Shown: piece after piece, positions 1,710 to 60,950 of the stretch
How the letters are laid out: each line of letters starts with the position of its first letter
Numbering within the stretch: position 1 is the first letter of the stretch
Origin: Dehalococcoidia bacterium
GTDB lineage: Bacteria > Chloroflexota > Dehalococcoidia > DSTF01 > JACRBR01
DNA length: 60,950 nucleotides
NCBI GenBank assembly: GCA_035286725.1
Contig: DATECV010000205.1
Span: forward strand, 1 to 60,950
Direction of reading: 5' to 3'
Made by a program: the position numbers and the translations under genes
Notes under the pieces: model-generated
Seen by the model: the letters and a program-made list of their open reading frames with translations, nothing else
Told to the model about the DNA's origin: nothing
The model's database searches: none

Positions 1710-3197
1710 CTACGCGTCCGCGCGTCGGTGCATCGTCGCCAGCTCGTCCAGCCGCAGCCCCGTCACGCGCCCGTCCGGCGTCCGGTCGAACGCCACGTAC
1801 GCCGGGTCCGCGTCCGGAAGCTGGATCGCGAAGAACCCCGGGTCGTCGGGATCGCACGGCGTCAGCCGCACGCCCTCCTTCCACTTCCCCCACCGCGACC
1901 GCAGGACCAGCGCATCGCCGTCCCGCTCGACGTTCACGCGCCCGATGCGCGTCTGTGGCCGGAAGTTCGTCAGCGGCCCCGGCATTGGCAGTTCGTACAT
2001 CCCCGGCGCCGCGGCCAGCAGCCCCGGATCCGTCGAGCCCTCCGCATACGGCGCGTCCTCGATGCCCAACACCGCCCGGACGATCCGCCGGAACACCGGC
2101 GCTGGTTCGTCCATCATGATGTTCAGGTGTTGCACGATCCCGATGTTCGCCTCCGGCAGCACGTCCAGGTGCGAGTTCCACCCCCCGAAGTACGCCCCGC
2201 CGTGCCCCAGCAGCGTCCGCCAGGCCGCGGGCCGCTCGCCGCTCACGCGCAGCGGCGTACGCGCGATCGACAGCCCCCAGCTCACCATCCGCCCGTCGTC
2301 GCCGCGGTGCGACGCCGTCATCGCCTCGAACGTCTCCGCTCGCACGATCCTTGCCCCGCCGCGCAGCAGCGCCGAAGCGTACTTCCCCATGTCCGGTACC
2401 GTCGACTGCACGCCGCCGGCCGCCCGCATCCCCTGGTTGAAGTCCGCCGTGAACTTCCCGCGGATGTTGTGCCCGTCCACGGTCGGTTCGTCCTTCACCA
2501 CCACGCCCGCGCGCTCCAGTTGGAAGCGGTTGTCTTCGTTGGGGGGCCGGTGATAGCACGTCGTGATCCGCTCGTCGTTCTGGTCCAGGATGTCCGTCGA
2601 CGTCATCCCCAGCGGCCCCCAGATCCGGCGCTGCATCACCTCCTGCAGCGATGCATCCTCGGCTCGTACGATGATCTCGCCCAGCAGCCCGTACCCGTTG
2701 TTGCAGTACGCCCACTTCGCCCCGGGCTCCACCTCCACGACGATCCCGTTCGGGTACAGCGTCGAGAAATCGCCGGGCGTGTTCACTGCCGCCCGGTCCG
2801 GATTCGCCGCGTCCGCCAGCCGCTCCCGCGTCGGCGCTTCGCCGATGCCGGACGTGTGCGAGAGCAGGTGCCGCACCGTCATCCCCTCCGCCGGTCCGTG
2901 AAACGTGACCTCGGGCAACAGCTCGACCACGCGCCCGTCCAGCGAGAGCTTCCCCTCGTCGACCAGCGCCATCGCGCACAGCCCTACCATCGTCTTCGTG
3001 ATCGATGCGATCCGCTGCCGGCGTTCCGGCTGCATGGGCTCTCCGGACTCGATGTCCGCCAGCCCGAAGCCCTCGCTGAACACCAGCTCGTTGCCCTCCA
3101 CCACCCCGATGCTGATGCCGGGTACGTGGTATCGGGCCAGGATCTCGGCTGCTGCGTCGCGGACGCGGCTCGCCGCCGCTGCGTCGAACGTGGCCAT
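1710..3197 (-). CDS. Serine hydrolase, beta-lactamase/DD-peptidase (class C-like) family
   Basis: 495-aa ORF with S-x-x-K motif (ASITKTM) in the typical N-terminal context (GISIGVVEGNELVFSEGFGLAD). Confidence 0.85.
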   Translation of the reverse strand: MATFDAAAASRVRDAAAEILARYHVPGISIGVVEGNELVFSEGFGLADIESGEPMQPERRQRIASITKTMVGLCAMALVDEGKLSLDGRVVELLPEVTFHGPAEGMTVRHLLSHTSGIGEAPTRERLADAANPDRAAVNTPGDFSTLYPNGIVVEVEPGAKWAYCNNGYGLLGEIIVRAEDASLQEVMQRRIWGPLGMTSTDILDQNDERITTCYHRPPNEDNRFQLERAGVVVKDEPTVDGHNIRGKFTADFNQGMRAAGGVQSTVPDMGKYASALLRGGARIVRAETFEAMTASHRGDDGRMVSWGLSIARTPLRVSGERPAAWRTLLGHGGAYFGGWNSHLDVLPEANIGIVQHLNIMMDEPAPVFRRIVRAVLGIEDAPYAEGSTDPGLLAAAPGMYELPMPGPLTNFRPQTRIGRVNVERDGDALVLRSRWGKWKEGVRLTPCDPDDPGFFAIQLPDADPAYVAFDRTPDGRVTGLRLDELATMHRRADA

Positions 3198-3242
3198 CGC
3201 TTCCTCCGTGCCACGAAGACTACGCCGGGAAAGCGCCCCGGT

Positions 3243-4877
3243 CTAGCGCTTCCCCGGTCCGTAGACCGCGCGCCCGGAAAACGCCCCTGTGTGCGCCCCG
3301 TCGCGGAGCACCGGCGTCCCGTTCACGATGACGTCGCGCACGCCCACCGCGTAGCTGTGCGGCTCCTGGTACGTCGCCGTGTCCGCCACCGTCGCCGGGT
3401 CGAACACGACGATGTCCGCGAAGAAGCCCGCTTCCAGGCGTCCGCGCCCGTCGAGTCCGAGGTTCTCCGCGGGAAACCGTGTCAGCCGCCGGATCGCCTC
3501 CGCCAACGGCGCCAGCCCCTCGTCCCGAACGTAGTGGCCCAGGAGTCGCGCGAACGTCCCGTACGCTCGCGGGTGCGTCGATGCGTTGAGAAACGCGCCC
3601 TCCGCCGCCGTCGAGGGCGAGTCCGATCCGAACGCCATCCACGGCAGCGCCACCTGCTTCCGCACGTTCTCCTCGGAGATCATGAAGTACGCCGTCGTCA
3701 CCCGCGACCGGTCCTTCGCCACCAGATCCATGATCGCGTCGATCGGGTCGACGCCCATCATCGACGCGATCTCCGTCAGCGTCTTCCCCTGGTACGCGCG
3801 GTTCTCTTCTTTGCGGACCGAAAGGACCAGCACGTTGTCGGCGCCTCTGCACCGTCCGTACAGGTTCTCCCAGCCGTCGTCCGAACCCTCGATCGCCGCG
3901 CGGATCTCTCGTCGCGCCCCCGCGTCTGCCAGCCGTTCGAACAGCTTCAGCGGGCCCCCGTCGTGAAACCACGGTGGTATGCAGTTGGAGAGCCCCGTCG
4001 CCCCCGCTGTATACGTGTACATGTCCGCCGTGATCGCGTCGCCCGCCGCCCGTGCCGCCTCCACCACCTCGATCGCCGCGTCGATCTTGTCCCAGTTCGC
4101 CGTCCCCGCCGCCTTCAGGTGGTAGATCTCCGCCGGAACGCCGCCCTCGCGCCCGATCCGCAGCAGCTCGTCGATCGCCTCCAGCAGTTCGTTGCTCTCG
4201 TTCCGCATGTGCGAGATGTACTTCCCCGCGTATGGAGCCGCCGTCCGGCAAAGCTCGATCAGCTCCCCCGTCGAGGCGAAGAACGCAGGCGGGTAGATCA
4301 GCGACGACCCGATGCCCAGCGCCCCGGCCGACATCTCGTCCCGCACCAGGCCGCGCATCGTATCCATCTCGGCGTCAGTGGGCGGCCGGTCATCCAGCCC
4401 CACCGCGTACGTCCGCAGCGTCGTCGCCCCGATGTACGACGCGACGTTCTGCGAGATCCCGCACTTCTCGGCGTGCTGCAGGTACTCCGCCAGCGAATGC
4501 CACGTCACATCCACCGGCATGTCGCCTTCGAGCATGCTCTTCTTCATGCGTCCGTGCATGTCCGGCGTCAGCGGCCCCATCGAGTTGCCCTCGCCGAAGA
4601 CCTGCAGCGTCACGCCCTGCTTCAGCTCTCCCAGCGACCGCGGGTCCTGAAGGATCGTCATGTACGAGTGGCTGAGCATGTTGATGAAGCCGGGCGCCAC
4701 GGCCAGGCCCGTCGCGTCCACGACAGTCGCCGCGCGGGCGTGCGAAAGTGGCCCGACGGCGGCGATCCGGTCGCCCGAAACACCGATGTCCGATCGGAAG
4801 GGCGGGCTACCGCTCCCGTCGTACACGGTCCCGTTGCGGATCAGGAGATCGAACGTTGATTCCGGCTCGTCAGTCAT
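3243..4877 (-). CDS. N-acyl-D-amino-acid deacylase (D-aminoacylase) family amidohydrolase
   Basis: N-terminus FDLLIRNGTVYDGSGSPPFRSDIGVSGDRIAAVG is typical of D-aminoacylases. Start set at MTDEPE (4877), giving an ATGA overlap with the upstream cyclase stop. The ORF-track start at 4895 is an alternative. Confidence 0.85.
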   Translation of the reverse strand: MTDEPESTFDLLIRNGTVYDGSGSPPFRSDIGVSGDRIAAVGPLSHARAATVVDATGLAVAPGFINMLSHSYMTILQDPRSLGELKQGVTLQVFGEGNSMGPLTPDMHGRMKKSMLEGDMPVDVTWHSLAEYLQHAEKCGISQNVASYIGATTLRTYAVGLDDRPPTDAEMDTMRGLVRDEMSAGALGIGSSLIYPPAFFASTGELIELCRTAAPYAGKYISHMRNESNELLEAIDELLRIGREGGVPAEIYHLKAAGTANWDKIDAAIEVVEAARAAGDAITADMYTYTAGATGLSNCIPPWFHDGGPLKLFERLADAGARREIRAAIEGSDDGWENLYGRCRGADNVLVLSVRKEENRAYQGKTLTEIASMMGVDPIDAIMDLVAKDRSRVTTAYFMISEENVRKQVALPWMAFGSDSPSTAAEGAFLNASTHPRAYGTFARLLGHYVRDEGLAPLAEAIRRLTRFPAENLGLDGRGRLEAGFFADIVVFDPATVADTATYQEPHSYAVGVRDVIVNGTPVLRDGAHTGAFSGRAVYGPGKR

Positions 4878-6274
4878 CCGCCGTCTCGGCGCCAACGCAC
4901 GTCGTACACCCGCACGGGATCCTCGAACCCGCGCAGCTCCGCCATGCCCTTGTCGGAGAAGAGGAAGCCCTTGCCCGCCACAAGCTGCCGCACCACGTCC
5001 GTCGTCAGGATTTCACCGGGTTCCGCTCGTGCGCAGACGCGCGCGGCCAGCTGCACCGCGGTCCCGAACAGGTCGTCGCCTTCGGCGACCGGTTCGCCGG
5101 CGTTGATCCCGATGCGGATCGAGACCGGCGTCTCGGGAGCCGCCTCGTTCCGCTGCCCGAACGCGCGCTGGATGCTCACGGCGCACTCCACGGCTCCCGA
5201 AGCCGTCGGAAAGGATGCCATGATGCCGTCGCCCGTGTGCTTGACCCGCCTCCCGCCGTGGCGTTCCAGCGCGTCCTCGACGATGTCGTTGTGCATCCGC
5301 ACCAGCTCCTGCGCCCGCACATCGCCCAGCCGCTGCGTGAACGCCGTCGACTCCTGCATGTCCGTGAACATGATCGTCCGGAACGTTACGCCCTGGTCGC
5401 TCGATCCGTCCGCGTGCCGGTGCCGCTGCTGTTGCAGTTGCACCAGCGTGTCCTCCGCCCGCACGCCCATGAAATCGGTGAACAGGTCCAGCGTGGCGCG
5501 AAGGTCGCCCATGTATGGCGAGAGCGATTCACCCGGCAGGACGGCGAGCCTCGCGTTCGGGATCGTCGCCGCCACCCGCTTCGACACCTCGACATCCAGC
5601 AGGGCGAAGTCCCGGCGATGCACAACGAGTGTCGGCGCCTGTACCCGCGGCAGCAGCGATCGCACGTCGTTGTGTTCGGCGCCTTCCCAGCAACTTCGGA
5701 ACGTCTCGTACGACATGCTCCCCTGCATGTACTGCGCCATCCGGTGCGCCGCCTCGCCGGAGTCCCATCCGAACACCGTGTGTGCCAGCGTCTCCGTAAA
5801 CAGGTTGTAGTCCAGGTCGCGGAGCCGATCCAGCGCTTCCTGGGTCGGGTTGTCATGGACACCGTCTTCGCCGTACGGCACCGGGCACCACAGGATCAGG
5901 TGCGAAACCCTCTCGGGATGCTGGACGGCGTACGTGATGGCGATCTGCGCGTTGTAGTACAGCCCGAACAGCACGAACCGGTCCAGCCCCAGGCGATCCA
6001 CCACCGCCTCGAGGTCCAGGATGTGTGTGTCGAGGTCGATCCTGTCCACGTCGCGGGTGGAGAGGCCCGCTCCGCGATTGTCATAACGGATGATGCGGAA
6101 CGTCTCGTTGAGGTGCTCGTAGTAGTGCCGCCACTCCGGTATCTGCCACTCTTCCTGCACGTTGCTCCACGGCAGTGCTGGTGGCGGATTCACGAGCGGA
6201 ATCCCCTCGCCGATCGTGGCGTAGGCGATACTAACCCCGTCGTCGGTCGTCGCGTACTCGATCCGCGGGTCCAT
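4874..6274 (-). CDS. Alpha/beta-hydrolase domain fused to a class III adenylate/guanylate cyclase domain
   Basis: The C-terminal half has cyclase motifs (FRTIMFTDMQESTAF...KHTGDGIMASF...IRIGINAGEPV...GTAVQLAARV). The N-terminal half is alpha/beta-hydrolase-like. Start chosen at MDPRIEY (6274), because the upstream 96 codons of the track ORF look non-coding. Confidence 0.85.
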   Translation of the reverse strand: MDPRIEYATTDDGVSIAYATIGEGIPLVNPPPALPWSNVQEEWQIPEWRHYYEHLNETFRIIRYDNRGAGLSTRDVDRIDLDTHILDLEAVVDRLGLDRFVLFGLYYNAQIAITYAVQHPERVSHLILWCPVPYGEDGVHDNPTQEALDRLRDLDYNLFTETLAHTVFGWDSGEAAHRMAQYMQGSMSYETFRSCWEGAEHNDVRSLLPRVQAPTLVVHRRDFALLDVEVSKRVAATIPNARLAVLPGESLSPYMGDLRATLDLFTDFMGVRAEDTLVQLQQQRHRHADGSSDQGVTFRTIMFTDMQESTAFTQRLGDVRAQELVRMHNDIVEDALERHGGRRVKHTGDGIMASFPTASGAVECAVSIQRAFGQRNEAAPETPVSIRIGINAGEPVAEGDDLFGTAVQLAARVCARAEPGEILTTDVVRQLVAGKGFLFSDKGMAELRGFEDPVRVYDVRWRRDGG

Positions 6275-6411
6275 GCAAAGCAGGGTAGCAGGTCTGCCCC
6301 GCCGCGTGGACAGGAGGCAGTTCCTGCGTTTTGCGCAGACTCGATGCGTCGCCCAGCGTGCGCGGAAGGTCGCTACCAACGGCCGATCCCGCACGGGGCA
6401 CGGCAAAGAAA

Positions 6412-6442
6412 TGCGAAAGAAAAGCCCGCCGGGCGGCGGGCT
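6412..6442 (-). terminator. Rho-independent terminator (stem AGCCCGCC/GGCGGGCT, loop GCCC, then TTTTCTTTCG on the minus strand)
   Basis: Read directly. It sits 10 nt downstream (minus strand) of the duplicated tRNA-Asp 3' end and is probably the ancestral tRNA-Asp terminator. Confidence 0.7.
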
Positions 6443-6452
6443 AGTGTTGCGT

Positions 6453-6471
6453 GCTGGCGACCCCGAAGGGA
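6453..6471. repeat. 19-bp direct repeat GCTGGCGACCCCGAAGGGA (distal att-like copy of the tRNA-Asp 3' end)
   Basis: Identical to 9625-9643, which is the 3' acceptor/T-stem of tRNA-Asp plus 2 nt. Confidence 0.9.
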
Positions 6472-6593
6472 ACGGGGGCCATCGAAGACACAAGCGAGCC
6501 AAGATTGACCCGAGGCTGGAGCGGTGGGGCATCACGGTCGTGCCGCTTTGGTCTCGCCGCACCGCCGAGAGCGAAACAACCTAAGATAACTGC

Positions 6594-7130
6594 ATGAGTA
6601 CGCTGAACAACAACAGGCTGATTCTCATCAGCGGAGCCATCGCAAGCGGCAAGACCACCCTTGCGTCGCGTTTAGCCGCGCGGGCGCGAGCGAGCAGCGT
6701 CCCAGCAGCGTCCATCGACATGGACGAGTTGATAAATGTGGCCGCCGGGCGGGACTGGAGCAGAATCACCAACACAGACAGACGCCTAGCAAGCGAGCTA
6801 GCAGCAGAAATCGCGCAATGGCTCTTCGCAAGAGACTACAGGTTCATTGCCATTGCTGGCTCCACCGTGTCGTCGCGCGAGTGGCAACAAGTTCTCAATC
6901 GTTTCCGTCTGACAGCGCGGAGCACCCGCGTCCTGCTCCGTGTATCGGTCGCTGAAGCTGTGCAAAGAGCGCGACAGGACCAAACGCGCGTCGCAACGCG
7001 AAGACCCGCTGTCCTCGCGCAACTTCATGCCGCCATCGATTGGTCTGATGTACCGGAGCCGGACATCGAACTGGACACTGACGGTTTGGGTCAGGATGAG
7101 GTGGCAGACACGGTCTGGCGCAAACTCTGA
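6594..7130 (+). CDS. P-loop NTPase/kinase (AAA_33 / zeta-toxin-like fold)
   Basis: Walker A ISGAIASGKTT near the N-terminus. 178 aa, in the lower-GC stretch. Confidence 0.7.
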   Translation: MSTLNNNRLILISGAIASGKTTLASRLAARARASSVPAASIDMDELINVAAGRDWSRITNTDRRLASELAAEIAQWLFARDYRFIAIAGSTVSSREWQQVLNRFRLTARSTRVLLRVSVAEAVQRARQDQTRVATRRPAVLAQLHAAIDWSDVPEPDIELDTDGLGQDEVADTVWRKL

Positions 7131-7327
7131 GGCCTTAGGGGAATGCGTATGGCCCCCCGGGTGCTGGGGGAAGTGGCGATCATTGCTGGACATAACACCT
7201 CAGCTACTTGGGGTGGCTGCACCCGGGGAGTCTCTCCGTGACATATCAAGTCGGGCCTTAGAGGGCCGAACATCCTGAAGAACTAGCTTGCTGGCGAGAC
7301 CGCACCGGAAACGCGCCGCTGCGGCGC

Positions 7328-7921
7328 ATGACGAGCGAAGGTGGGTGCAGGTTGCTGAATCGTATTCTTGGCGCCGCTGCTGTGATTGGCCTCGTTGGAG
7401 CGTTCTTTGGCTCGGGTGGCCTCGCGCTCTTTACCGACACGCAGAGCGTGGGCTCGAATACATTCACGACGGGTACGGTCGACATATCGTCCTCTCCGAC
7501 CACCGCACTTGTCACGTTTAGCGCGATGGCGCCGGGGGACCAGGTAACCGCGCCGATCACCGTGAACAACGCTGGAACGATGCAGTTCCGGTATGCCGTC
7601 ACGAGCACGACGACGGAGAACGTGCTCGCAGCAGAGCTCGACATGACGATTAAGTCTGGCGTGACGACCTGCACCACAGGCGGCTTCTCCGCCGATGGAA
7701 CCGTCGTGTACGCGACGGGTGACCTGGGCAGCACGGCCGGCGTCAATGTCATCGGTAACCCTGCACAGGGAACCCACGCCGGCGACCGCGTCCTCGCCGC
7801 TTCGGCGAGCGAGATCCTGTGCTTCAATGTGAGCTTGCCGCTGGGAGCGACGAACGCATCGCAAGGGCTGACGTCGACAGCCACGCTCGCCTTCGCGGCG
7901 GAACAGACCGCGAACAACTAG
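7328..7921 (+). CDS. TasA/camelysin (Peptidase_M73)-like secreted protein with SipW-class signal peptide
   Basis: The motif order matches Bacillus TasA. Signal peptide ending GGLALFTDTQ, then NTFTTGTVDI, then APGDQVTAPITVNNAGT, with C-terminal TATLAFAAEQT. Confidence 0.8.
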   Translation: MTSEGGCRLLNRILGAAAVIGLVGAFFGSGGLALFTDTQSVGSNTFTTGTVDISSSPTTALVTFSAMAPGDQVTAPITVNNAGTMQFRYAVTSTTTENVLAAELDMTIKSGVTTCTTGGFSADGTVVYATGDLGSTAGVNVIGNPAQGTHAGDRVLAASASEILCFNVSLPLGATNASQGLTSTATLAFAAEQTANN

Positions 7922-7934
7922 CCGGAGGAGCCGA

Positions 7935-8894
7935 GTGAGTCGCAGGGATGGCGATCTCCAAATGAACGCGGCCCGTTCATCAATTGTGGCGGCGTATCCG
8001 CCGCGGCTTTCGATGCCGCAGATCCCTCGATGGTTGCGGCTTGGTACTGTGGCCATCTTCTACGCGTTTGCGTTTCTTGTGGTAGGAGTCCTGCTGGCCG
8101 CCACCCTGCCTGCGTTCGCGGGTTTCCACACCGTTACGGTGTACGGCGGCAGCATGGGCGACGCGCTGCCGGCTGGCAGCGTCGCCGTCACGAGAACCGT
8201 AGACAATTCGCAACTCGTGGTGGGAGATGTCATCGCGCTTGGCAGGCACCAAGGCGGGCTGCCGACTCTGCATCGGATCGTCGCGATCGAGGAGGTGGAC
8301 GGCGGACGGCTCGTCTCCACGCGGGGTGACGCGAACCAGACGAATGATGCCCTGCCGATCAGGGTGTCAGGTGAGGGCGATCGTCTCGTGTACCACATCC
8401 CGTGGATCGGTTACTTCCTCCACTTCGTCGGCAGCCAATTGGGTTTGGCGCTCTTCATTGGCATTCCAGCCACCGTATGGACCGCGCGCGGGTTCATCAC
8501 CCTGCAACGAGCGATCAGGTGGATCGTGAAACACAGGGCTCCCGGCGAGCGGATTGCGAGTGATTTCTTGAGGCGCGGCGAACGCGGGGGAATCCCGATC
8601 TTGCACCGGAACGTCGCGATCGAGGAAGCGGGCGGCGAAACGGTCGTCACCACCCATGGCGACGCGAACGAGAAAAGGGAGCGCCCGCCGATCAGGGCAT
8701 CCGGCCGGGGAGATCGGCTCGGCCACCACATCTCCTGGCTCGAGCAAGCTCTTGCGTTTTCCCGCAGCGCGCGCGGCCTGGCGCTGCTTGTGGGTGTTCC
8801 GATTAGCGTGTGGGCAATCCACGAAGCGATCGCGGTGAGCATAGCGTTCAAGAGGCGCCGGAGCCGGCAGCCGGCGTTATCGCGGGCCGGCTGA
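7935..8894 (+). CDS. Signal peptidase I, SipW/archaeal-eukaryal type (S26B), with duplicated C-terminal half
   Basis: GTG start 4-5 nt after GGAGGAG. N-terminal TM, catalytic Ser box VYGGSMGDALPAGS, His box LPTLHRIVAI, GD box TRGDAN, C-terminal TM. Residues 218-300 repeat residues 107-190. Confidence 0.85.
   Translation: MSRRDGDLQMNAARSSIVAAYPPRLSMPQIPRWLRLGTVAIFYAFAFLVVGVLLAATLPAFAGFHTVTVYGGSMGDALPAGSVAVTRTVDNSQLVVGDVIALGRHQGGLPTLHRIVAIEEVDGGRLVSTRGDANQTNDALPIRVSGEGDRLVYHIPWIGYFLHFVGSQLGLALFIGIPATVWTARGFITLQRAIRWIVKHRAPGERIASDFLRRGERGGIPILHRNVAIEEAGGETVVTTHGDANEKRERPPIRASGRGDRLGHHISWLEQALAFSRSARGLALLVGVPISVWAIHEAIAVSIAFKRRRSRQPALSRAG
8253..8840 (+). repeat. Internal tandem duplication (period 333 bp / 111 codons) inside the signal peptidase gene
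   Basis: GGLPTLHRIVAIEEVDGGRLVSTRGDAN...PIRVSGEGDRLVYHI aligns with GGIPILHRNVAIEEAGGETVVTTHGDAN...PIRASGRGDRLGHHI. DNA-level identity blocks are also present (cgtcgcgatcgagga, gcgacgcgaac, ccgccgatcaggg). Confidence 0.85.
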
Positions 8895-9289
8895 TGAGAT
8901 CGGCATTGTTCATCCTCGCGTTCACGTTCGCTATCGCTGGCGCCTTGAGCATGGGCGTGTTGGCTCTGTTCAGCGAATCCATGGGCGTCGGCGCCAACGT
9001 ATTTAGCACCGACACGCTCAACCCACCGACCGACCTCTTGTCGACGGGCGTCACGTCTACGACGTTGAATTGGACTGCCACGTCGGACACGTACGCTTCG
9101 GGTCATCGTGTGTTTCGCGGCACAGTAAGTGGCGGACCGTATACGCAGGTCGGCCAGGTGACGCCGCGCACGACGACCACGTTCAATGAATCTCCGCCTC
9201 CGGGGACGTATTATTACGTGCTGCGTAGCTACGTAGAGAACTGGGAGAGCGTCGACAGCGCGCAGGTAACCGCGGTCGTCTCCCCATAA
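8894..9289 (+). CDS. Secreted FN3-like domain protein with SipW-class signal peptide
   Basis: Start MRSALF overlaps the peptidase stop (TGATG). Signal GVLALFSESMGVGANVFSTDTL parallels the TasA-like N-terminus. The rest is FN3-like (TLNWTATSD...YRVFRG-type...YYYVLRSY). Confidence 0.75.
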   Translation: MRSALFILAFTFAIAGALSMGVLALFSESMGVGANVFSTDTLNPPTDLLSTGVTSTTLNWTATSDTYASGHRVFRGTVSGGPYTQVGQVTPRTTTTFNESPPPGTYYYVLRSYVENWESVDSAQVTAVVSP

Positions 9290-9580
9290 GCGTGGTACCC
9301 GCTTCTACCGAGATCGTCACGACCCCGCCAGCGCCCTTGGCGGACCGCTTCCTGAATGCGCTCGAGCTGGCCAACGTGCGTTTGCCGTCCGACGAGCGTC
9401 TGGCACAGGAAACTGGGCTCGAGAGGCTCGGTCACGGTGCTCGCATCCTTTGGACCGTGTGGCCGTTTATCGCGCGTTCCGCCGGCCCGGAGCGAGTCGC
9501 GGTTATGCTCGCGGGGGCCCCACGGCCTTGGGCCTGACCTTATAACCTTCGGACCAGTGCGGCCGCCAGGCTGCACCTGC

Positions 9581-9613
9581 ACAGAAAAGGCGAAGCCCGC
9601 CGTATGGCGGGCT
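9581..9613 (-). terminator. Hairpin downstream of tRNA-Asp (stem AGCCCGCC/GGCGGGCT, loop ATAC, then TCGCCTTTTCTG)
   Basis: Same 8-bp stem as the terminator at 6423-6442. The U-tract is displaced and weaker. Confidence 0.5.
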
Positions 9614-9626
9614 GGATGCTGAAAGC

Positions 9627-9703
9627 TGGCGACCCCGAAGGGATTCGAACCCTCGATCTCCACCGTGACAGGGTGGCATGTTAGACCGCTACACCACGGT
9701 GCC
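9627..9703 (-). tRNA. tRNA-Asp: tRNA-Asp (anticodon GTC), CCA encoded
   Basis: Hand-folded 77-nt cloverleaf: GGCACCG TG GTGT AGCGGTCTA ACAT G CCACC CTGTCAC GGTGG AGATC GAGGG TTCGAAT CCCTT CGGGGTC G CCA. There is one A4:G69 mismatch in the acceptor stem. Confidence 0.9.
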
Positions 9704-9791
9704 GCGGTGTCCGCCCGAAACACGCCGAATGCCTGTCCCGGGCGCCTCCAGTCTAGTTACGGCCTTCGAGGGTGTCAATCGTGCCCGTCGC

Positions 9792-11438
9792 CTACTCCGC
9801 AATCCACTGCTCGTAGTTGTACTGCGCCAGGCTTCCCGGCAACCCTGGCCGGCGATTGCGCACCCGGCTCCACGCGGCCGAGTACCCCACGCTCGTGAAC
9901 AGCTCCATCATCGGCCGCTGGAAGATCATCAGCTTCTGCGCCTCCTGCACCGTCTTCCGCCGTTGCTCCCGCTCCAGCTCCCCCCACGAACGCTCGATGA
10001 GCGAGTCCGTCGTGCCGTCCGCGAACGCGAACGGGCTCCCGCTCCCGTCCGGCCCCCGCGAGTGAAAGAACCGCAGAGGGATGTCCGCCGTCTCATACGG
10101 CGGCTGGCTCACCAGCGTGAGTTGGAACGCCCCCCGCCTGAAGTTGGTGAACCACACCAGCAGGTCCTGTGGCTGCACCTCGACCGCGATGCCAATCTCC
10201 AGCAACTGCTCCTTCACCACGCCTGCCACGTCCAGCATCGGCGCCAGGTTCGCCACCTGCAGCGTGAACGCAGCTCGCTCCGCACCTGCCGCCATCAGGA
10301 GCTGGCGTGCTGCCGAGCGCCGCTCGTCCATCGTCGCCGAGCCGCCGAATGCCTCGCGCACGTCGTTCTCGAACAGGGCCCAGTACCCCTCCGCCAGGTG
10401 TGGGTTGACGGGGCCCAGGATGCGCCCGTCGCCACCCGCGATGTCCCGGATCATCGCGTCCCGGTCCAGCGCGAGGTCGATTGCCCCGCGCACCCGAGGA
10501 TCGTGCAGAGGCGGTACGTCCATGCGCGTCCCCAACGCCAGCCAGGAGAGGCTCGGTTCGGCCGTAACCTCGATCTCCTCCCGCTCCGCCGCCAACGTAC
10601 GCGCGTCCTGCTGCGCGCCAGCCGGAATGCTGTCAATAGCACCGTCCAGCATCGCGGCGTTCAGCGACGTGCCCTCGGTGAAGACCTCCCACTCCATCGC
10701 GTCCAGGTACGGCACGGGTCCGCGGTAGTACCCATCGTTGCGCACGATCCGCGCGCGCCCGGGCGGCTGGGCCTGCTCCAGCTGGAACGGCCCGCTGCCT
10801 GCCGCTGCCGTGTACAGGCTTACTTCCTGCTCGATCAGCTCCTTCGCCAGGATCGCCCCCGCCGAAATGTCGCCCAGATATGCCAGTGAATACGCGTACG
10901 GCCGCTTCGTCGTCACCCGAACCGTGAGCTCGTCCATCGCCTCAACCCGGTCCAGGACGGTCGTGTGGAACGTCTTCGTGGTGGCGATGGGGTTGCGGCG
11001 GAAGCGCTCGATCGAAGCGACCACGTCCTCTGCCGAAAGCGTACGGCCGTGCACGGGTTCGACGTCGTGGAACTCGATGCCTGGACGCAGCTTGAATACG
11101 AACGTCGTCGCGTCCGGCTGCTCCACCTGCGCGGCCTGGTCGTAGATGATGCTGTCGTCCCGCGGGTCGACGTGCAGCAGGTACCCGTACAGGCGCGCCG
11201 TGATCGCCAGCCCCGTCCCTGTCTCCGTCTGCGGGTCCAGCCCGGAGAAGGCCGCAGTCGTGCCCGTCCGAAGCGTCCCCCCGCGCCGGGGGCCGGCGTC
11301 CGCCGGTGGCGTGCCGTCGCCGCCGCCGCATGCGGCCCACGTCGCCGCGCCGGCCGTCAGCGAGAGGCCGCTCGCCAGCGCCCGCCGCCGCGAGATGCGC
11401 GCGGGCATGCGTTTCGACCAGTAGCCGCGATCCGTCAT
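9792..11438 (-). CDS. ABC transporter substrate-binding protein, family 5 (peptide/nickel, DppA/OppA-like) with Tat/lipoprotein signal
   Basis: Twin-arginine signal plus lipobox (ISRRRALASGLSLTAGAATWAACGG). Family-5 SBP-like body. Start is ambiguous (11438 or 11408); the track start at 11588 is unlikely. Confidence 0.85.
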   Translation of the reverse strand: MTDRGYWSKRMPARISRRRALASGLSLTAGAATWAACGGGDGTPPADAGPRRGGTLRTGTTAAFSGLDPQTETGTGLAITARLYGYLLHVDPRDDSIIYDQAAQVEQPDATTFVFKLRPGIEFHDVEPVHGRTLSAEDVVASIERFRRNPIATTKTFHTTVLDRVEAMDELTVRVTTKRPYAYSLAYLGDISAGAILAKELIEQEVSLYTAAAGSGPFQLEQAQPPGRARIVRNDGYYRGPVPYLDAMEWEVFTEGTSLNAAMLDGAIDSIPAGAQQDARTLAAEREEIEVTAEPSLSWLALGTRMDVPPLHDPRVRGAIDLALDRDAMIRDIAGGDGRILGPVNPHLAEGYWALFENDVREAFGGSATMDERRSAARQLLMAAGAERAAFTLQVANLAPMLDVAGVVKEQLLEIGIAVEVQPQDLLVWFTNFRRGAFQLTLVSQPPYETADIPLRFFHSRGPDGSGSPFAFADGTTDSLIERSWGELEREQRRKTVQEAQKLMIFQRPMMELFTSVGYSAAWSRVRNRRPGLPGSLAQYNYEQWIAE

Positions 11439-16880: not shown

Positions 16881-17649
16881 CGGCGAAGCCTCCCTGCATC
16901 TGCCGGAACGAGAGAGACCCCAGCACGGCGAACCCGCCCGCGAACGCCAGCGCCGGCAGCATCGACAAGCCCGGCACCTGGTTCTGCAGGAACAGGTCTC
17001 GCCACCCTTCGACCAGCGACGCCATCGGGTTTAGGGCCAGGATCCAGTCGTGGTACTTGTCCGGCACGATCGACAGCGGGTAGATCACCGGCGTCAGGTA
17101 GAACCAGATTAACCCCACGAATACATCCGTCAGGTGCTCCAGGTCGCGGAAGTACACGTCCAGCGACGCGATGAACAGCACGATGCCCATGATCAGCACC
17201 GCCTCCACCGCGATCAGGTACGGGATCCCCACGAGCCACGTCCAGTTCGGCGTGTATCCGCTGATCGCCAGCAGGATGATCAGCACCGGGATCGAAAGCG
17301 CGAACTGCACGCCGTTGTTCAGCACCGTCGAGAACGGCAGCACGAACCGCGGAAAGTAGACCTTCTTGATGAGCGCCCCGTTCGAGGTGAACGATCCCAC
17401 GCACAGCGTCAACGACGTCTGGAACCACGTCCACGGGAACAGCGCCGCCAGCAGCACCAGCCCGTAGTCCTCGACGTCGATCCGGATGAACTTGCTCAGC
17501 ACGACGTACAGCACCGCGCCCTGCAGCAGCGGCCGGATCAGGGACCACAGGTAACCGAAGATCGTGTCCTGGTACCGCAGCTTCAGTTCACGGAACGTCA
17601 GGAGATAGAGCAGATCGTACGCCCTGCGGGCCTGCCGGTTCATGACCAC
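16870..17649 (-). CDS. ABC-2 type transporter permease (Wzm/TagG-like)
   Basis: 259-aa polytopic membrane protein with the typical N-terminus (LLYLLTFRELKLRYQDTIFGYLWSLIRP). Overlaps wzt by 11 nt. Confidence 0.9.
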   Translation of the reverse strand: MVMNRQARRAYDLLYLLTFRELKLRYQDTIFGYLWSLIRPLLQGAVLYVVLSKFIRIDVEDYGLVLLAALFPWTWFQTSLTLCVGSFTSNGALIKKVYFPRFVLPFSTVLNNGVQFALSIPVLIILLAISGYTPNWTWLVGIPYLIAVEAVLIMGIVLFIASLDVYFRDLEHLTDVFVGLIWFYLTPVIYPLSIVPDKYHDWILALNPMASLVEGWRDLFLQNQVPGLSMLPALAFAGGFAVLGSLSFRQMQGGFADAL

Positions 17650-17763
17650 CGTGCTCGACCTCGGACTGTCCGGCCGCCAGGCATCCCTCGAAGCGGCGCG
17701 CTTGCCCAGTCTGCAGGCAAGCGTAGCATATCCGTTCGATACGAACCGTCGGCGTGCGCGGTC

Positions 17764-18216
17764 CTAGTCGAGCGCGGACCTGATCCGCTGAGCGATGGAC
17801 ACGCGTTCTTCAAAGGGAGTCTCGGGCTGCTGAGCGGCAAGGATCCCCGGCGGCTGACCGTGGTAGCGCGGCGCGAGGTGCATGTGATAGTGCTCGACGC
17901 TCTGGCCCGCAGCGGTGCCGTTGTTCTGGAATACGCCTAGCCCAGGTGGCTCGAACGCTCGCTCTACGGCGACTGCCAGGCGGCGCATGTGGCGCGCTAT
18001 AGCAGCAGCCTCGTCGGCGGTGAGGTCGAGCAGGGTTGCAGCGTGGCGCTTCGGGATGACAACGAGATGCGGCGTGGCGATCTGCCGCGGAAGGAGGAAG
18101 GCGAACGTGTCCGCGAGATCCTCGATGACCGCACACTTGGTACCGGACGACGTCTCACCCTTCTCAATGTTCTCACAGAAGGGGCAGGACTCGTGCTGCG
18201 GTATCTCAAGCGCCAT
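17764..18216 (-). CDS. HIT family (histidine triad) protein
   Basis: Histidine triad VEHYHMHLAP. Start at MALEIPQ (18216); the upstream track extension is low-complexity. Confidence 0.85.
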   Translation of the reverse strand: MALEIPQHESCPFCENIEKGETSSGTKCAVIEDLADTFAFLLPRQIATPHLVVIPKRHAATLLDLTADEAAAIARHMRRLAVAVERAFEPPGLGVFQNNGTAAGQSVEHYHMHLAPRYHGQPPGILAAQQPETPFEERVSIAQRIRSALD

Positions 18217-18227
18217 GGGGCTCGGCC

Positions 18228-18518
18228 TTAGCAGGTGGCGGTCTCGACGACCTGCTCGCAGGTCGAGACTTCCTTCACCTCCACCGTCCCCACCATCCCG
18301 AACGGCTTCACGTACTCGTCGACCTTCGACTGCTCCGCGGCCTCCAGCACCAGCATCATCCGGTGCTCGCCCGGGTGTACCACGTCGGAGTGGATCTTGA
18401 TCCCGAACTGGTCGGCTGTCGGCTGGGTTACGTGCTTTCCCAGCATCAGCATCATCTCTCGGTTCTTCGTGGGGCACGTCTCCGCAGTGTGCCTGTGCTC
18501 AACGAAATACAGCGGCAT
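18228..18518 (-). CDS. Hypothetical small cytoplasmic protein (96 aa)
   Basis: Start MPLYFVEH preceded by AAGGAGAG. Coding-like composition. Confidence 0.6.
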   Translation of the reverse strand: MPLYFVEHRHTAETCPTKNREMMLMLGKHVTQPTADQFGIKIHSDVVHPGEHRMMLVLEAAEQSKVDEYVKPFGMVGTVEVKEVSTCEQVVETATC

Positions 18519-18581: not shown

Positions 18582-19637
18582 CTACCGCTTACGGCGAAGC
18601 GTCCGCCGTGCCGTTTCCACTGCCGCGATCCCGTCCATCGAGCCTTCCATCACGTCTCGCTGGCGCGCCTCCGTCACGTGCAGGTAGATCTGCGTCGTGT
18701 TCGGGTTACTGTGGCCCAGCAATTCCTGCACCACGCGCAGTTCCGCCCCGTTGTCCAGCAGGTGCGTGGCGAAGCTGTGCCGCAGCAAGTGCGGGTGAAC
18801 CCGGTCGTCGAGCCCGGCCTTCAGCGCGTACTTCCGCACCAGGATCTGGATCGCCCGCTGGCTCAACCGCGCCCCGAACCGGTTCACGAAGATCGCTCCC
18901 GCGCCGGCGGCTCCCGGCGGGACAGCGGATGCACTCCTCCCATCTTCCACCTTCGGTCGTGCATTCTCGCCATCACCCGACCGCCGGCTCAGGAGGGCAG
19001 TCCGCCCTTCGCGGAGATACGCCTCCAGCGCCGCGCGGGCCGGCGCCCCCATGACGACGATCCGCTCCTTGTTCCCTTTGCCCCGCACGCGGATGGCCCG
19101 ATGGTCCAGGTCCGCGTCGCCCACGTCCAGCCCGTGCGCCTCCGAAACCCGCAATCCGCTCGCGTACATCACCTCCAGCAGCGCCCGGTCGCGCAGGTCC
19201 TCCGGCCGCGTGCCCGTCGCCGCCGAGATCAGCGCCGTCACGTCCTCCAGCGTCAGCACGTGCGGCAGGCGTCGCCCCTGCTTTGGACCGCTCACCAGCG
19301 CCAGCGGGTCATCCCGCATCTCGCCCACCAGACGCAGCCATCGGTAGAAGCCCTTCACCGTGCTCACGCGCCGCGTGATCGAGCCCCGTGCAACGCCGCC
19401 CTCCTGCATCGCCGCGATGTACGATCGGAACCGCGAGCGCACGATCCCGGTCAGGCTCGCGCCGTGTTCGTCCAGCCACGCGAAATAGTGCCGCAAGTCC
19501 GACCGGTAGTTGCGAAGCGTGAACGACGAGAGGTTCCGCCCGCCGTGAAGATCCGCCAGGTAGCGCCCCAACAGCCGCTCCAACTCAGGGTTGTTGTGTT
19601 CTTGCTCAGCAGTTGCGTGAGGGGAGAGGCCTGCCAT
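18582..19637 (-). CDS. Tyrosine site-specific recombinase, XerC/XerD type
   Basis: Catalytic region HPHLLRHSFATHLLDNGAELRVVQELLGHSNPNTTQIYLHV. About 30-aa low-complexity insert (SGDGENARPKVEDGRSASAVPPGAAGAG). Confidence 0.9.
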   Translation of the reverse strand: MAGLSPHATAEQEHNNPELERLLGRYLADLHGGRNLSSFTLRNYRSDLRHYFAWLDEHGASLTGIVRSRFRSYIAAMQEGGVARGSITRRVSTVKGFYRWLRLVGEMRDDPLALVSGPKQGRRLPHVLTLEDVTALISAATGTRPEDLRDRALLEVMYASGLRVSEAHGLDVGDADLDHRAIRVRGKGNKERIVVMGAPARAALEAYLREGRTALLSRRSGDGENARPKVEDGRSASAVPPGAAGAGAIFVNRFGARLSQRAIQILVRKYALKAGLDDRVHPHLLRHSFATHLLDNGAELRVVQELLGHSNPNTTQIYLHVTEARQRDVMEGSMDGIAAVETARRTLRRKR

Positions 19638-59437: not shown

Positions 59438-59816
59438 GGGGGTGTCAGTCCGGTACTGACCTGCTCGGGGACGAAAGGGCTCGACAGGGATCGACGGATC
59501 TGAGTTGCAGGCGGAGGACGGCTGCACCCTCCTTAATACGCGGCCAAACCATATTTGGCGAATCTGAACTCGCCCTCGCTGCCTAGGCAGTGACGTTCAT
59601 CCCGTTCCAACCCCGGCGGGGCGGGAATGAGCGACGAAAGCCCGGGGTGCTGCACCCGCAACGCCGGTAGCGGGAGCCTAAGACCACCGGCTGGCCTCGT
59701 ACGCACAGGCCCGCAGTGGACGTACGAGGCGAGACCTAACTGTCGGGATAAGCCTGTAGGAGACTCAGGGCGGCGGTTGCCTGGACGGGGAGTTCAACTC
59801 TCCCCCGTCTCCACCA
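59438..59816 (+). ncRNA. ssrA: tmRNA (transfer-messenger RNA)
   Basis: The 5' GGGGGTG pairs with the 3' CGTCTCC-A-CCA, including G3:U. T-arm GGGGAG-TTCAACT-CTCCCC and GGGCTCGACAGGG near the 5' end. The tag ORF ends ...GESELALAA-TAG (stop at 59584-59586). The resume codon is not determined (GGC at 59557 or 59542). Confidence 0.9.
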
Positions 59817-59822
59817 CTAATC

Positions 59823-59868
59823 AACGCCCTCCCGAATCTGAAATAGGGGTTCGGGAGGGCGTTTCGGC
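59823..59868 (+). terminator. Strong hairpin after ssrA (14-bp stem AACGCCCTCCCGAA/TTCGGGAGGGCGTT, then TTCGG)
   Basis: Read directly. The U-tract is poor. Confidence 0.6.
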
Positions 59869-59873
59869 AGCTT

Positions 59874-59895
59874 TGACAGTCACGGTGACAGTCAC
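59874..59895. repeat. Direct repeat TGACAGTCAC-GG-TGACAGTCAC upstream of the orphan ORF
   Basis: Read directly. It overlaps a TTGACA hexamer (59873-59878). Confidence 0.7.
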
Positions 59896-59913
59896 CAAAA
59901 CGAAGGAATCGCT

Positions 59914-60531
59914 TTGGCTAACCGAGATCTTCGCCACGAGCTCATCGCAGACGTCGAACAAATCGAGGACAACGCGCGGCTGTTTCTCGCGGGTCGCAAC
60001 TCCGCCTACCAGGCGGTGGCGATTCAACTGCGGAACCTCTTGCTGAAGGGGCCACGTGGCCTGATGCTTCGAGTGTTCCCTGGCGCAACGCTGCATCCCC
60101 TGTCCGCCGAGCCCGGGCGCGAGGAGGGGGCGGACGGCCTGATAAGGGTCACACTGTTGGGACATGCGGATCTCGTCCTGAGACCTACGCCGCACGTTCA
60201 GCTGCCAGTTCAATACGACGCGGAACCGATTCCGATCTCGCAGTGGATTGGCCAGTGGGTAATCGATTCACAGATCAGGATTGACAAGTTGATCAACGAA
60301 ACCGCCGATCAGGAGGTTGCGCACACCCAGGAAGAACGAACAAGGATGTTGGAACGCCTGAACAGTGCCGGATTCTACTTCGGGATCTCTGATCCAAACG
60401 ACATCGGCAACCGGCGCCCCGACCGCTACATGTACCAGATGATGATCGTCGCGATCGGCGAGTACGTTGCCAAGCGTTGCCGCCAGTTACTGGCCGCGAC
60501 TCCGGTCCCCGACCCTGCTGACTCCAAGTAA
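59914..60531 (+). CDS. Hypothetical protein (205 aa), island cargo
   Basis: TTG start 6 nt after GAAGGA. Lower GC than the genome. No recognisable domain. Confidence 0.5.
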   Translation: MANRDLRHELIADVEQIEDNARLFLAGRNSAYQAVAIQLRNLLLKGPRGLMLRVFPGATLHPLSAEPGREEGADGLIRVTLLGHADLVLRPTPHVQLPVQYDAEPIPISQWIGQWVIDSQIRIDKLINETADQEVAHTQEERTRMLERLNSAGFYFGISDPNDIGNRRPDRYMYQMMIVAIGEYVAKRCRQLLAATPVPDPADSK

Positions 60532-60567
60532 AATTCTCGCTGGGCCCCGTTGGCTCTCGATTTGTTG

Positions 60568-60950
60568 TTACCGCTCGATCGCCACCCCCTGGAACACGCG
60601 ATCCATCGCCTCGGCCGCCGCGCCTTGCATGTCGGGCAGAACGTGCGAGTAGATCCGCAACGTCGTGCTGATGTCGGCGTGGCCCAACATTTCGGACGCG
60701 ACCTTCACCGGCACCCCTTCGGCCATAAGCAATGTCGCCGCGGTGTGCCGCAGGTTGTGGAAGCGCATCGGTGGGAGGCCCGCGCGACCCAGCAGGCGCG
60801 CGAATGACCGCGTGCGTACGTTGTTCCCGTCGAGCGGCCGTCCGCGGCCCGTGGTGAACACAAAGCCATGATCCTCCCACAACGGGCCAGCGGCTAACCG
60901 TTGTTCGAGCTGGCGCGGTCGATGTGCGCGCAGAGATTCCACGGCGATCG
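60568..60950 (-). CDS. Tyrosine-type integrase, C-terminal catalytic part (5' end beyond the window)
   Basis: RFHNLRHTAATLLMAEGVPVKVASEMLGHADISTTLRIYSHV is the H-x-x-R ... Y catalytic signature. The ORF is open to the window edge. Confidence 0.9.
   Translation of the reverse strand, partial: IAVESLRAHRPRQLEQRLAAGPLWEDHGFVFTTGRGRPLDGNNVRTRSFARLLGRAGLPPMRFHNLRHTAATLLMAEGVPVKVASEMLGHADISTTLRIYSHVLPDMQGAAAEAMDRVFQGVAIER

Follow-up and report, generated by a model that had tools for sequence, protein, structure and literature searches.

A perfect tRNA-Asp 3'-end repeat pair in a Dehalococcoidia contig as the probable outer bounds of a small cassette array without a recombinase

The window analysed here is a stretch of 60,950 bp from a Dehalococcoidia bacterium (contig DATECV010000205.1), and its subject is an islet at 6412-9703 that lies behind a tRNA-Asp(GTC) gene and is flanked by genes for a solute-binding protein (SBP) and a cyclase. 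Copies of the 19-mer GCTGGCGACCCCGAAGGGA lie at 6453-6471 and 9625-9643, with a kinase gene and a tasA-sipW operon in the DNA between them. An earlier reading of the sequence (the original prediction) took the interval for a single element integrated at the tRNA 3' end. In what follows, a copy of the tRNA 3' end is termed a core, and the conserved stretch that adjoins a displaced core where an intact gene would have the tRNA body is termed its arm. The features of the locus are as follows.

6423-6442, minus strand: intrinsic terminator just downstream of the displaced fragment, AGCCCGCC-GCCC-GGCGGGCT then TTTCTTTC (8-pair stem, T tail)
6453-6471, minus strand: displaced tRNA-Asp 3' fragment, distal core copy A (17 nt of tRNA plus 2 nt; 100% identical to 9625-9643)
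6472-6584, plus strand: cassette arm A, reading ...GDPEG-NGGHRRHKRAK-IDPRLERWGITVVPL..., stop codon at 6582-6584 (ratio of nonsynonymous to synonymous differences, pN/pS, 0.20)
6594-7130, plus strand: P-loop kinase, SKI/AAA_33-like, 178 aa, cargo of the distal cassette (domain scan; PDB 1zp6)
7150-7159, no strand: deletion scar, one TGGCCCCCCG copy (siblings have two copies around 220 bp; L001 9217-9446)
7180-7327, plus strand: upstream region travelling with the tasA operon (homologous to its L033 counterpart)
7328-7921, plus strand: TasA/camelysin-family secreted protein with SipW-type signal peptide (PF12389, 39.8 bits)
7935-8894, plus strand: SipW/archaeal-type signal peptidase I (TIGR02228, 86.7 bits, cut-off 51.85)
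8897-9289, plus strand: small secreted FN3-like protein, 131 aa (weak FN3 match, PDB 3mpc, E=1.7e-4)
9298-9588, minus strand: AAA_16 relic, 5' leader plus first ~45 codons (alignment to L016; truncated beside the FN3 stop codon)
9589-9613, minus strand: terminator directly downstream of the intact tRNA-Asp (hairpin 9594-9613)
9625-9643, minus strand: proximal 19-mer copy C, inside the tRNA-Asp 3' end
9627-9703, minus strand: tRNA-Asp(GTC) gene, anchor of the proposed array (ARAGORN; Rfam, 57 bits)
9750-9778, minus strand: promoter-like site of the tRNA, TTGACA-17-TAGACT

The 19-mer was confirmed to have exactly two copies: no other site was found in the window, even with three mismatches allowed, and two or more matches arose in 0 of 100 dinucleotide-preserving shuffles. 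Copy C comprises the last T-loop base, the 3' strand of the T-stem, the 3' strand of the acceptor stem, the discriminator and the encoded CCA (17 nt), plus 2 nt, and ARAGORN and Rfam agree with its predicted assignment to tRNA-Asp(GTC). Rfam scanning of 6000-10000 returned nothing beyond the tRNA. The same 8-bp stem, AGCCCGCC/GGCGGGCT, follows both copies on the minus strand (6423-6442 and 9594-9613), and a stem identical to that at 6423-6442 also stands behind tRNA-Asp in the relative L016; the 6423-6442 terminator is a paralogue of the one behind the intact tRNA.

Two small variants were recorded at these sites. The 5' end of the window tRNA-Asp reads GGCACCG, against GGCCCCG in 17 of 17 other copies from the same species and relatives; the change (C4>A, window 9700) is unique to the window strain, gives an A4.G69 mismatch in the acceptor stem, and is either a strain-specific mutation or a sequence error. 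The base after the distal 19-mer (window 6471-6472; L001 8539-8540) varies within the species, being A in the window and G in L001.

The same species was represented by 11 distinct metagenomic contigs reaching the islet (>99.4% identical), and the islet was present in all of them. Four (L001, L004, L007 and L014) have 220 extra bp at window 7150-7159. This segment holds a third tRNA-Asp 3' end (21-nt match, TGGCGACCCCGAAGGGATTCG) followed by a diverged arm (arm B), related in sequence to the one that follows the left-hand 19-mer copy in the window. The window strain lost the 220 bp between two 10-bp TGGCCCCCCG repeats, fusing a kinase cassette and a tasA-sipW-FN3 cassette. Because the siblings keep a third tRNA-Asp fragment and arm inside the interval, the 19-bp pair brackets two cassettes, and the single integrated element of the original prediction is not upheld. 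The ancestral order, read from the siblings, runs from the tRNA through the tasA-sipW-FN3 block, arm B with core B, the kinase gene, and arm A with core A to the terminator, beyond which lies the cyclase gene. At 7286-7302 a 17-mer resembling the core was rejected as a chance likeness; it belongs to the tasA upstream region common to L033.

An empty site, with tRNA-Asp followed directly by the 6412-6442 terminator, had also been predicted; its junction would read 6412-6452, the 19-mer and then TTCGAACCC. It was not seen in any contig, the 11 same-species contigs showed neither an empty site nor alternative occupancy, and an exact look-up of the SBP protein for alternative occupancy gave no match. 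The islet looks fixed because occupancy is not polymorphic among the 11 contigs and the interval holds no recombinase.

All four islet genes run on the plus strand, as had been expected, and the kinase, TasA-like and SipW-type assignments stand, but the FN3 label of the fourth is weakly supported. The TasA-like protein exceeds the cut-offs of both PF12389 (22.5 bits) and TIGR04088 (20.2 bits, cut-off 19), and the peptidase gene is adjacent, giving the two components of a tasA-sipW secreted-fibre operon: a SipW-dependent TasA/camelysin protein and a SipW/archaeal-type peptidase. The FN3-like protein is probably a second SipW substrate, because its N-terminus (ALFSESMGVGANVFSTDTL) mirrors the TasA signal motif (ALFTDTQSVGSNTFTTGTV). 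Together the cargo would supply a secreted TasA-type fibre system and a small kinase. Within the peptidase gene there is an old in-frame tandem duplication of the C-terminal half (8253-8409 / 8586-8742; 72% nucleotide identity, 333-nt spacing), and its product has 319 aa, against 218-302 aa in the homologues of relatives. Pfam and NCBIfam scans found no recombinase domain in any open reading frame (ORF) of 6412-9703, and a tyrosine-recombinase tblastn probe gave no significant match in the interval, in agreement with the predicted lack of a recombinase.

The interval is less GC-rich than its flanks, as stated earlier. GC of 6472-9624 is 62.8%, the lowest stretch in the window (mean 66.4%, sd 1.5%, in 3.15-kb windows), and its tetranucleotide distance is greater than that of every sliding window of the stretch. 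GC at third codon positions (GC3) is 0.65-0.77 in the four islet genes and 0.84-0.90 in the flanking genes. Homologues of the tasA operon in relatives likewise have GC3 somewhat below that of their own neighbours, and part of the dip is for this reason intrinsic to the operon family. The DNA of foreign appearance does not reach the tRNA but stops near 9290-9300.

The 337 bp between there and the tRNA (9290-9626) had been described as the usual place of int, with a decayed island as one possibility. Scanning with the adjacent SBP retrieved Chloroflexota metagenome-assembled genomes (MAGs) sharing the neighbourhood. In one of these, L016 (SBP 76% identical), tRNA-Asp is followed by the same-stem terminator and then by an AAA_16 ATPase gene (88 bits). 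Window 9298-9626 (minus strand) aligns with the L016 terminator, leader and first ~45 codons of that gene (60% identity over 30 residues, E=2e-11). The homology breaks off ~10 bases from the FN3 stop codon, and the relic has native GC (0.666). What stands at the supposed int site is the tRNA terminator and the start of an AAA_16 gene; the remark that this segment has no convincing gene holds in that no intact gene was called, but not in that a recognisable truncated relic is present. By its homology the 337 bp would be an inherited, truncated neighbour of the tRNA.

The tasA operon has relatives at other loci. The TasA-like protein had 1,548 homologues, many of them 65-89% identical, and the few with a named source are from Dehalococcoidia MAGs. 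L031 (7258-11339) and L033 (2030-7079) carry the same three-gene block, a tasA-sipW-third-gene operon, downstream of an S41 (CtpA-like) peptidase gene, which may be its usual position in the clade; L030 has it in yet another context. Homologues of the FN3-like gene come after sipW in L030, L031 and L033, the third product having ~305 aa in L031 and L033 vs 131 aa in the window and L030. No tRNA fragments or arms were found at the operon loci of L030, L031 and L033. Nucleotide homology between the window and L033 extends from ~7180 to 9299, upstream region included. From these comparisons tasA-sipW-FN3 is a clade-typical operon. Its most likely route was into a cassette that already existed, where it took the place of most of the AAA_16 gene, and not by site-specific insertion at the tRNA.

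In more diverged relatives the same kind of arrangement recurs. L017, L020, L023 and L028 have tRNA-Asp beside an SBP gene (48-57% identical to that of the window), followed by two or three cores; L021 and L034 are further examples. From the tRNA outward, the four arrays are made up as follows.

L017: APH gene, then arm and 22-nt core
L020: OsmC gene with arm and core, then hydrolase/VOC unit with decayed arm and core
L023: Gly-rich secreted protein, core, APH gene, arm and core, then DinB-like gene
L028: DinB gene, arm with double core, methyltransferase gene, decayed arm with core

The distal core of L020 is followed by gagacactattcgaatcggccctttcgagggccgg, which is the terminator directly behind the tRNA in L017. 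Relative to L017, L020 has a 1,011-bp insertion of the OsmC cassette between the tRNA-Asp 3' end and this terminator, bounded exactly by the core. The occupied-versus-empty comparison suggested for the tRNA-Asp locus could thus be made at the sister loci L020 and L017, but not in this species, and the proposed att-type integration into the tRNA 3' end is borne out by a true displaced fragment and by the precise insertion in L020, but not as one decayed island. Unit sizes are 0.7-2.7 kb, often with one gene, and the orientation of the cargo relative to the arm is mixed. No recombinase was found in the arrays of L017, L020, L023, L028, L021 and L034, or beside the intact tRNA-Asp in the fetched loci. 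Cassettes common to several genomes were considered and rejected, the APH and DinB cargo of different arrays not being close relatives.

A number of irregularities were noted in and near these arrays. In L028 (1473-1523), two cores lie 34 nt apart with nothing between, the second with a 1-nt deletion, an arrangement that a lost cassette or the collapse of two junctions could have left. L034 (2001-3260) has two cores and two arms with no intact tRNA-Asp; its innermost core runs into decayed tRNA-Asp-like sequence (3186-3260), and the core of one arm (2545-2625) is gone, that arm having a W>stop change. An XerC/D-like recombinase gene lies at window 18582-19637 (minus strand), 9 kb from tRNA-Asp, and its L023 orthologue (71% identical) borders the array. 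Xer was rejected as a dedicated recombinase: the gene is near the array in the window and L023 and absent near L017 (10 kb each side). In L023 (6-791, 2135-2252, 2455-2498), the last ~120 bp of the xer-like gene are repeated twice and bracket methyltransferase/PNPOx and small-ORF units, an arrangement resembling a cassette boundary of another type; the window has no repeats of the xer 3' end.

Each well-preserved displaced fragment has in common an arm of ~80 nt. Homologues of arm A were found in L017, L020, L021, L023, L028 and L034, and as short ORFs (P0001-P0006, P0127-P0134). The distal 48 nt are 81-94% identical in nucleotides between hosts whose SBP is ~50% identical in amino acids. In the core-to-cassette frame the arm peptide reads ...IDPRLKRWGITVVPV. 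Within the block CGG TGG GGC ATC ACG GTC GTG CCG (RWGITVVP), seven of the eight columns that vary fall on the third base of a codon. For six arms compared over 16 codons, pN/pS was 0.20 in the core-to-cassette frame (KIDPRLKRWGITVVPV) vs 0.35 in the best opposite-strand frame. When the aligned codons were read directly, the four substitutions by which the two frames can be told apart (CTG/TTG, AGG/CGG, GGC/GGT and CGG/CGT) were all synonymous solely in the core-to-cassette frame. Across the core the frame is open as GDPEG in most arms; three have the other frame (LATPK).

When a profile of the peptide was searched, all that came back were short ORFs, which are additional arms; they typically consist of GDPEG, for which the tRNA core codes, and IRGRRKHKK.K(I/V)DPRLKRWGITVVPV, with a stop 0-20 codons on. 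No longer protein ending in the arm peptide was found by profile search of protein clusters and representatives. A part of a longer protein was accordingly rejected as the identity of the arm, the matches being ORFs of 31-113 aa and one readthrough from a hydrolase gene; a 1241-aa match (16 profile positions in a repetitive protein) and a 578-aa match (11 matched stretches) were judged spurious. The arm as the N-terminus of a gene on the tRNA sense strand, split as in SSV, was rejected on the pN/pS values and on a profile search that returned no protein, and a decayed tRNA body on a local alignment no better than shuffles. No Rfam family matched the arm, and the RNAalifold consensus of eight arms had no supported helix and an unfavourable covariation term. 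Arm or core plus arm, as DNA and as peptide, matched nothing in IMG/VR, phage and plasmid collections. The constraint seems not to act on integrated copies, because a frameshift, W>C or W>stop is seen in arms whose core is imperfect or missing, which is what relics should show.

We favour, at a probability of roughly 0.6, the reading that the 19-bp repeats are the outer bounds of a small recombinase-less cassette array, built behind tRNA-Asp by repeated site-specific recombination. The array appears to consist of relics of serial site-specific integration, now fixed rather than mobile. Incoming DNAs, which we infer to have been circular, would each have carried a copy of the tRNA 3' end next to an arm. 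Recombination would have taken place at the last 17-22 nt of tRNA-Asp, from the T-loop to the CCA. A crossover in this region is of the type commonly used by tyrosine integrases, and the recombinase would have been encoded outside the array. Each event would have regenerated the tRNA and pushed the previous 3' end and the older cassettes distally. The best account of the arm is that it once coded for the C-terminus of a donor gene lying across attP, the body of which would have been split off on integration and later lost. Deletions and replacements of the usual kind would then have reshaped the cargo, as is seen in the AAA_16 relic and in the arrival of tasA, and small deletions such as the 220-bp loss would wipe out internal att sites. 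Read in this way from the tRNA, the window array would consist of the terminator and 45-codon AAA_16 relic, the tasA-sipW-FN3 operon in place of the remainder of that gene, arm B and core B (deleted here), the kinase, arm A and core A, the terminator and the host cyclase gene.

Several points weigh against this reading. In the proximal cassette, the part nearer the tRNA is shared with L016 and looks vertically inherited, and because of this the tasA operon probably entered by another event, which was probably not site-specific and which an array model alone does not explain. The coding signal of the arm is based on about nine DNA sequences. No autonomous parent or cognate recombinase was found in the fetched loci, in 5.8 billion protein clusters and 1.84 billion representatives, or in IMG/VR, phage and plasmid collections; most of the related contigs are short, and recombinases could sit just beyond them. 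Neither an empty site nor a circular junction was seen for this species.

Of the alternatives, the least improbable is a live cassette system, in which a recombinase from another part of the genome goes on taking up and releasing cassettes, each a gene with its arm and core, at the tRNA-Asp 3' end. Such a system would explain the perfect cores beside intact arms in several genomes, the two L028 cores 34 nt apart, arms far better conserved than host genes, and an XerC/D-like gene 9 kb off in the window and at the array edge in L023. The cargo, mostly single accessory genes (APH, DinB, OsmC, VOC, methyltransferases, kinase) as in integron cassettes, would even suit an integron-like version, with the tRNA end as attI, arm plus core as attC, and the arm kept for the recombinase or for the peptide that it encodes; we hold this version, like the system itself, to be unlikely. 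No recombinase is consistently linked to the arrays (L017 has none within 10 kb on either side), the 11 same-species contigs show no polymorphism of excision or occupancy, and the cargo has mixed orientation relative to the arm. The arm, moreover, has neither hairpin nor covariation, its third-base periodic conservation is unlike that of a binding site, and older arms decay in place.

A single 3.15-kb island whose integrase once lay in 9290-9626 and decayed beyond recognition would account for the attL/attR-like geometry, the lower GC and the lack of a called gene in the 337 bp, but it is very doubtful given the third tRNA fragment and arm in the siblings, the homology of the 337 bp, with native GC, to the L016 terminator, leader and AAA_16 start, and the homology of the tasA block, promoter region included, to operons at other loci. 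It is more doubtful still that no site-specific recombination took place and that the tRNA 3' end and terminator were duplicated locally by slippage or unequal crossing-over, with unrelated genes piling up between. The similar terminator stem behind both copies would fit such a duplication, as would cassette cargo that has clearly been remodelled by other processes. However, no displaced fragment has tRNA sequence on its tRNA-body side; the same arm is found there instead, despite SBP identities of 48-57% and different cargo, and the L020/L017 insertion is bounded exactly by the core.

The array was compared with known systems. Under the Islander definition (PMC4383910) an island has an intact tDNA and a displaced fragment in direct orientation, and both are present here (tRNA 9627-9703; fragment 6453-6471). 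The arrays nevertheless fall outside that definition, because they are without an integrase, 6412-9703 holding no tyrosine-recombinase integrase, and because they have an internal fragment of the same tDNA, seen in the siblings at window 7150-7159. The nearest match is with the islands of Dehalococcoides that lie next to ssrA, the tmRNA gene, and have no recombinase; the ssrA islands occur in tandem, and for 15 that lack an integration module the status of cis-mobilizable elements was suggested (McMurdie et al. 2011, PMC3146451). Both belong to the same phylum and have tandem units downstream of a small RNA gene, many without a recombinase, a direct repeat of ~20 bp from the 3' end of the RNA gene, cut in or near the T-loop, and a conserved motif on the island side. 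The arrays differ in their target (tRNA-Asp), in their units of 0.7-2.7 kb, often with a single gene, versus multi-gene islands, and in that no member with an integration module (the DsiB serine recombinase or another) was found. Their conserved flank has ~80 nt and looks coding, whereas the motif of the ssrA islands has 15 bp.

In the islands of Prochlorococcus built by tycheposons, serial integration has left behind partial tRNAs as well as degenerate elements (Hackl et al., bioRxiv 10.1101/2020.12.28.424599). Serial integration at a tRNA gene pushes older elements inward there as well, and the cargo is accessory (niche-adaptive in tycheposons). Tycheposons have a tyrosine recombinase and often replication genes, whereas the units here are cargo-only and no recombinase-bearing parent was seen. 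Cis-mobilizable elements (CIMEs) and accretion in the integrative and conjugative elements (ICEs) of Streptococcus likewise yield tandem att-flanked units without recombination or transfer genes, and are defined relative to a helper ICE. The cassettes here have such flanks (cores, with an element-type arm at the distal junction) and no recombination or transfer genes, but no helper is known, and they are candidates for mobility only; a cognate autonomous element at the same att site was found neither in 20 related loci (contigs short) nor in the protein, viral, phage and plasmid searches.

Phage Mx8 targets tRNA-Asp genes too. Its attP lies inside the int gene, to which integration gives a new 3' end, and the integrase genes of Mx8 and SSV are both documented to span attP (PMC6070905; PMC4383910). 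A gene spanning attP could similarly leave a coding remnant beside a displaced tRNA fragment. Unlike the Mx8 case, the arm peptide has no similarity to any phage record and the displaced piece has ~40 codons; no recombinase body was found beside the regenerated tRNA, no long protein contains the peptide, and the sense-strand peptide has no match. Like the arrays, integrons stack accessory cassettes at one anchor, most of them with a single gene and all with a recombination site at the end. The arrays nonetheless fail as integrons because they lack intI and attC-type structure and have mixed gene orientation. The neighbours are the SBP and cyclase genes in place of intI and attI, the nearest tyrosine recombinase is the XerC/D-like one 9 kb off, and the anchor is a tRNA gene; attC palindromes were not found, the cassette ends being conserved in sequence and not in structure, with no hairpin supported by RNAalifold.

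Two further stretches of the window were recorded. A second, milder low-GC stretch at 17000-18500 (0.62-0.65), with ABC-2 transporter and HIT-family genes and small ORFs, sits just downstream of the xer-like gene. At 59467-60950 a tmRNA gene (59467-59816) is followed by a hairpin, a 204-aa ORF (59917-60531) and, on the minus strand, a tyrosine recombinase gene that runs off the window, which has its C-terminal part (stop near 60571). The probable explanation is an element that integrated at the tmRNA gene and still has its integrase.

Taken alone, the islet is ordinary: a degraded tRNA-associated islet with a TasA-type fibre operon and a kinase. It carries a practical warning, in that a perfect att-like repeat pair can enclose a composite whose internal att site has recently gone. 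Taken with the relatives, tRNA-Asp would be a long-lived dock for very small accessory cassettes in one uncultured Chloroflexota lineage, and these cassettes share a conserved end piece that was seemingly once translated. Arrays of this general kind are known; the conserved coding-like arm is the new and unexplained part. Quite tentatively, the Chloroflexota clade may have an undescribed tRNA-Asp-anchored gene capture, its recombinase never linked to the array and the arm peptide whole only in the free circle. The arm would then be, and we offer this as speculation of the same order, the C-terminal ~25-40 residues (...RRKH..KIDPRLKRWGITVVPV) of a gene intact only across the joined ends of the circle. 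If true, bacteria would have in this capture system a cassette-sized parallel to the split integrase genes of archaeal SSV type. Were the parent element or recombinase found, the locus would offer a tractable case of recombinase-less cargo build-up at tRNA genes, and would also show how cassette-sized units arise outside integrons and whether attP-spanning genes leave scars that can be recognised.

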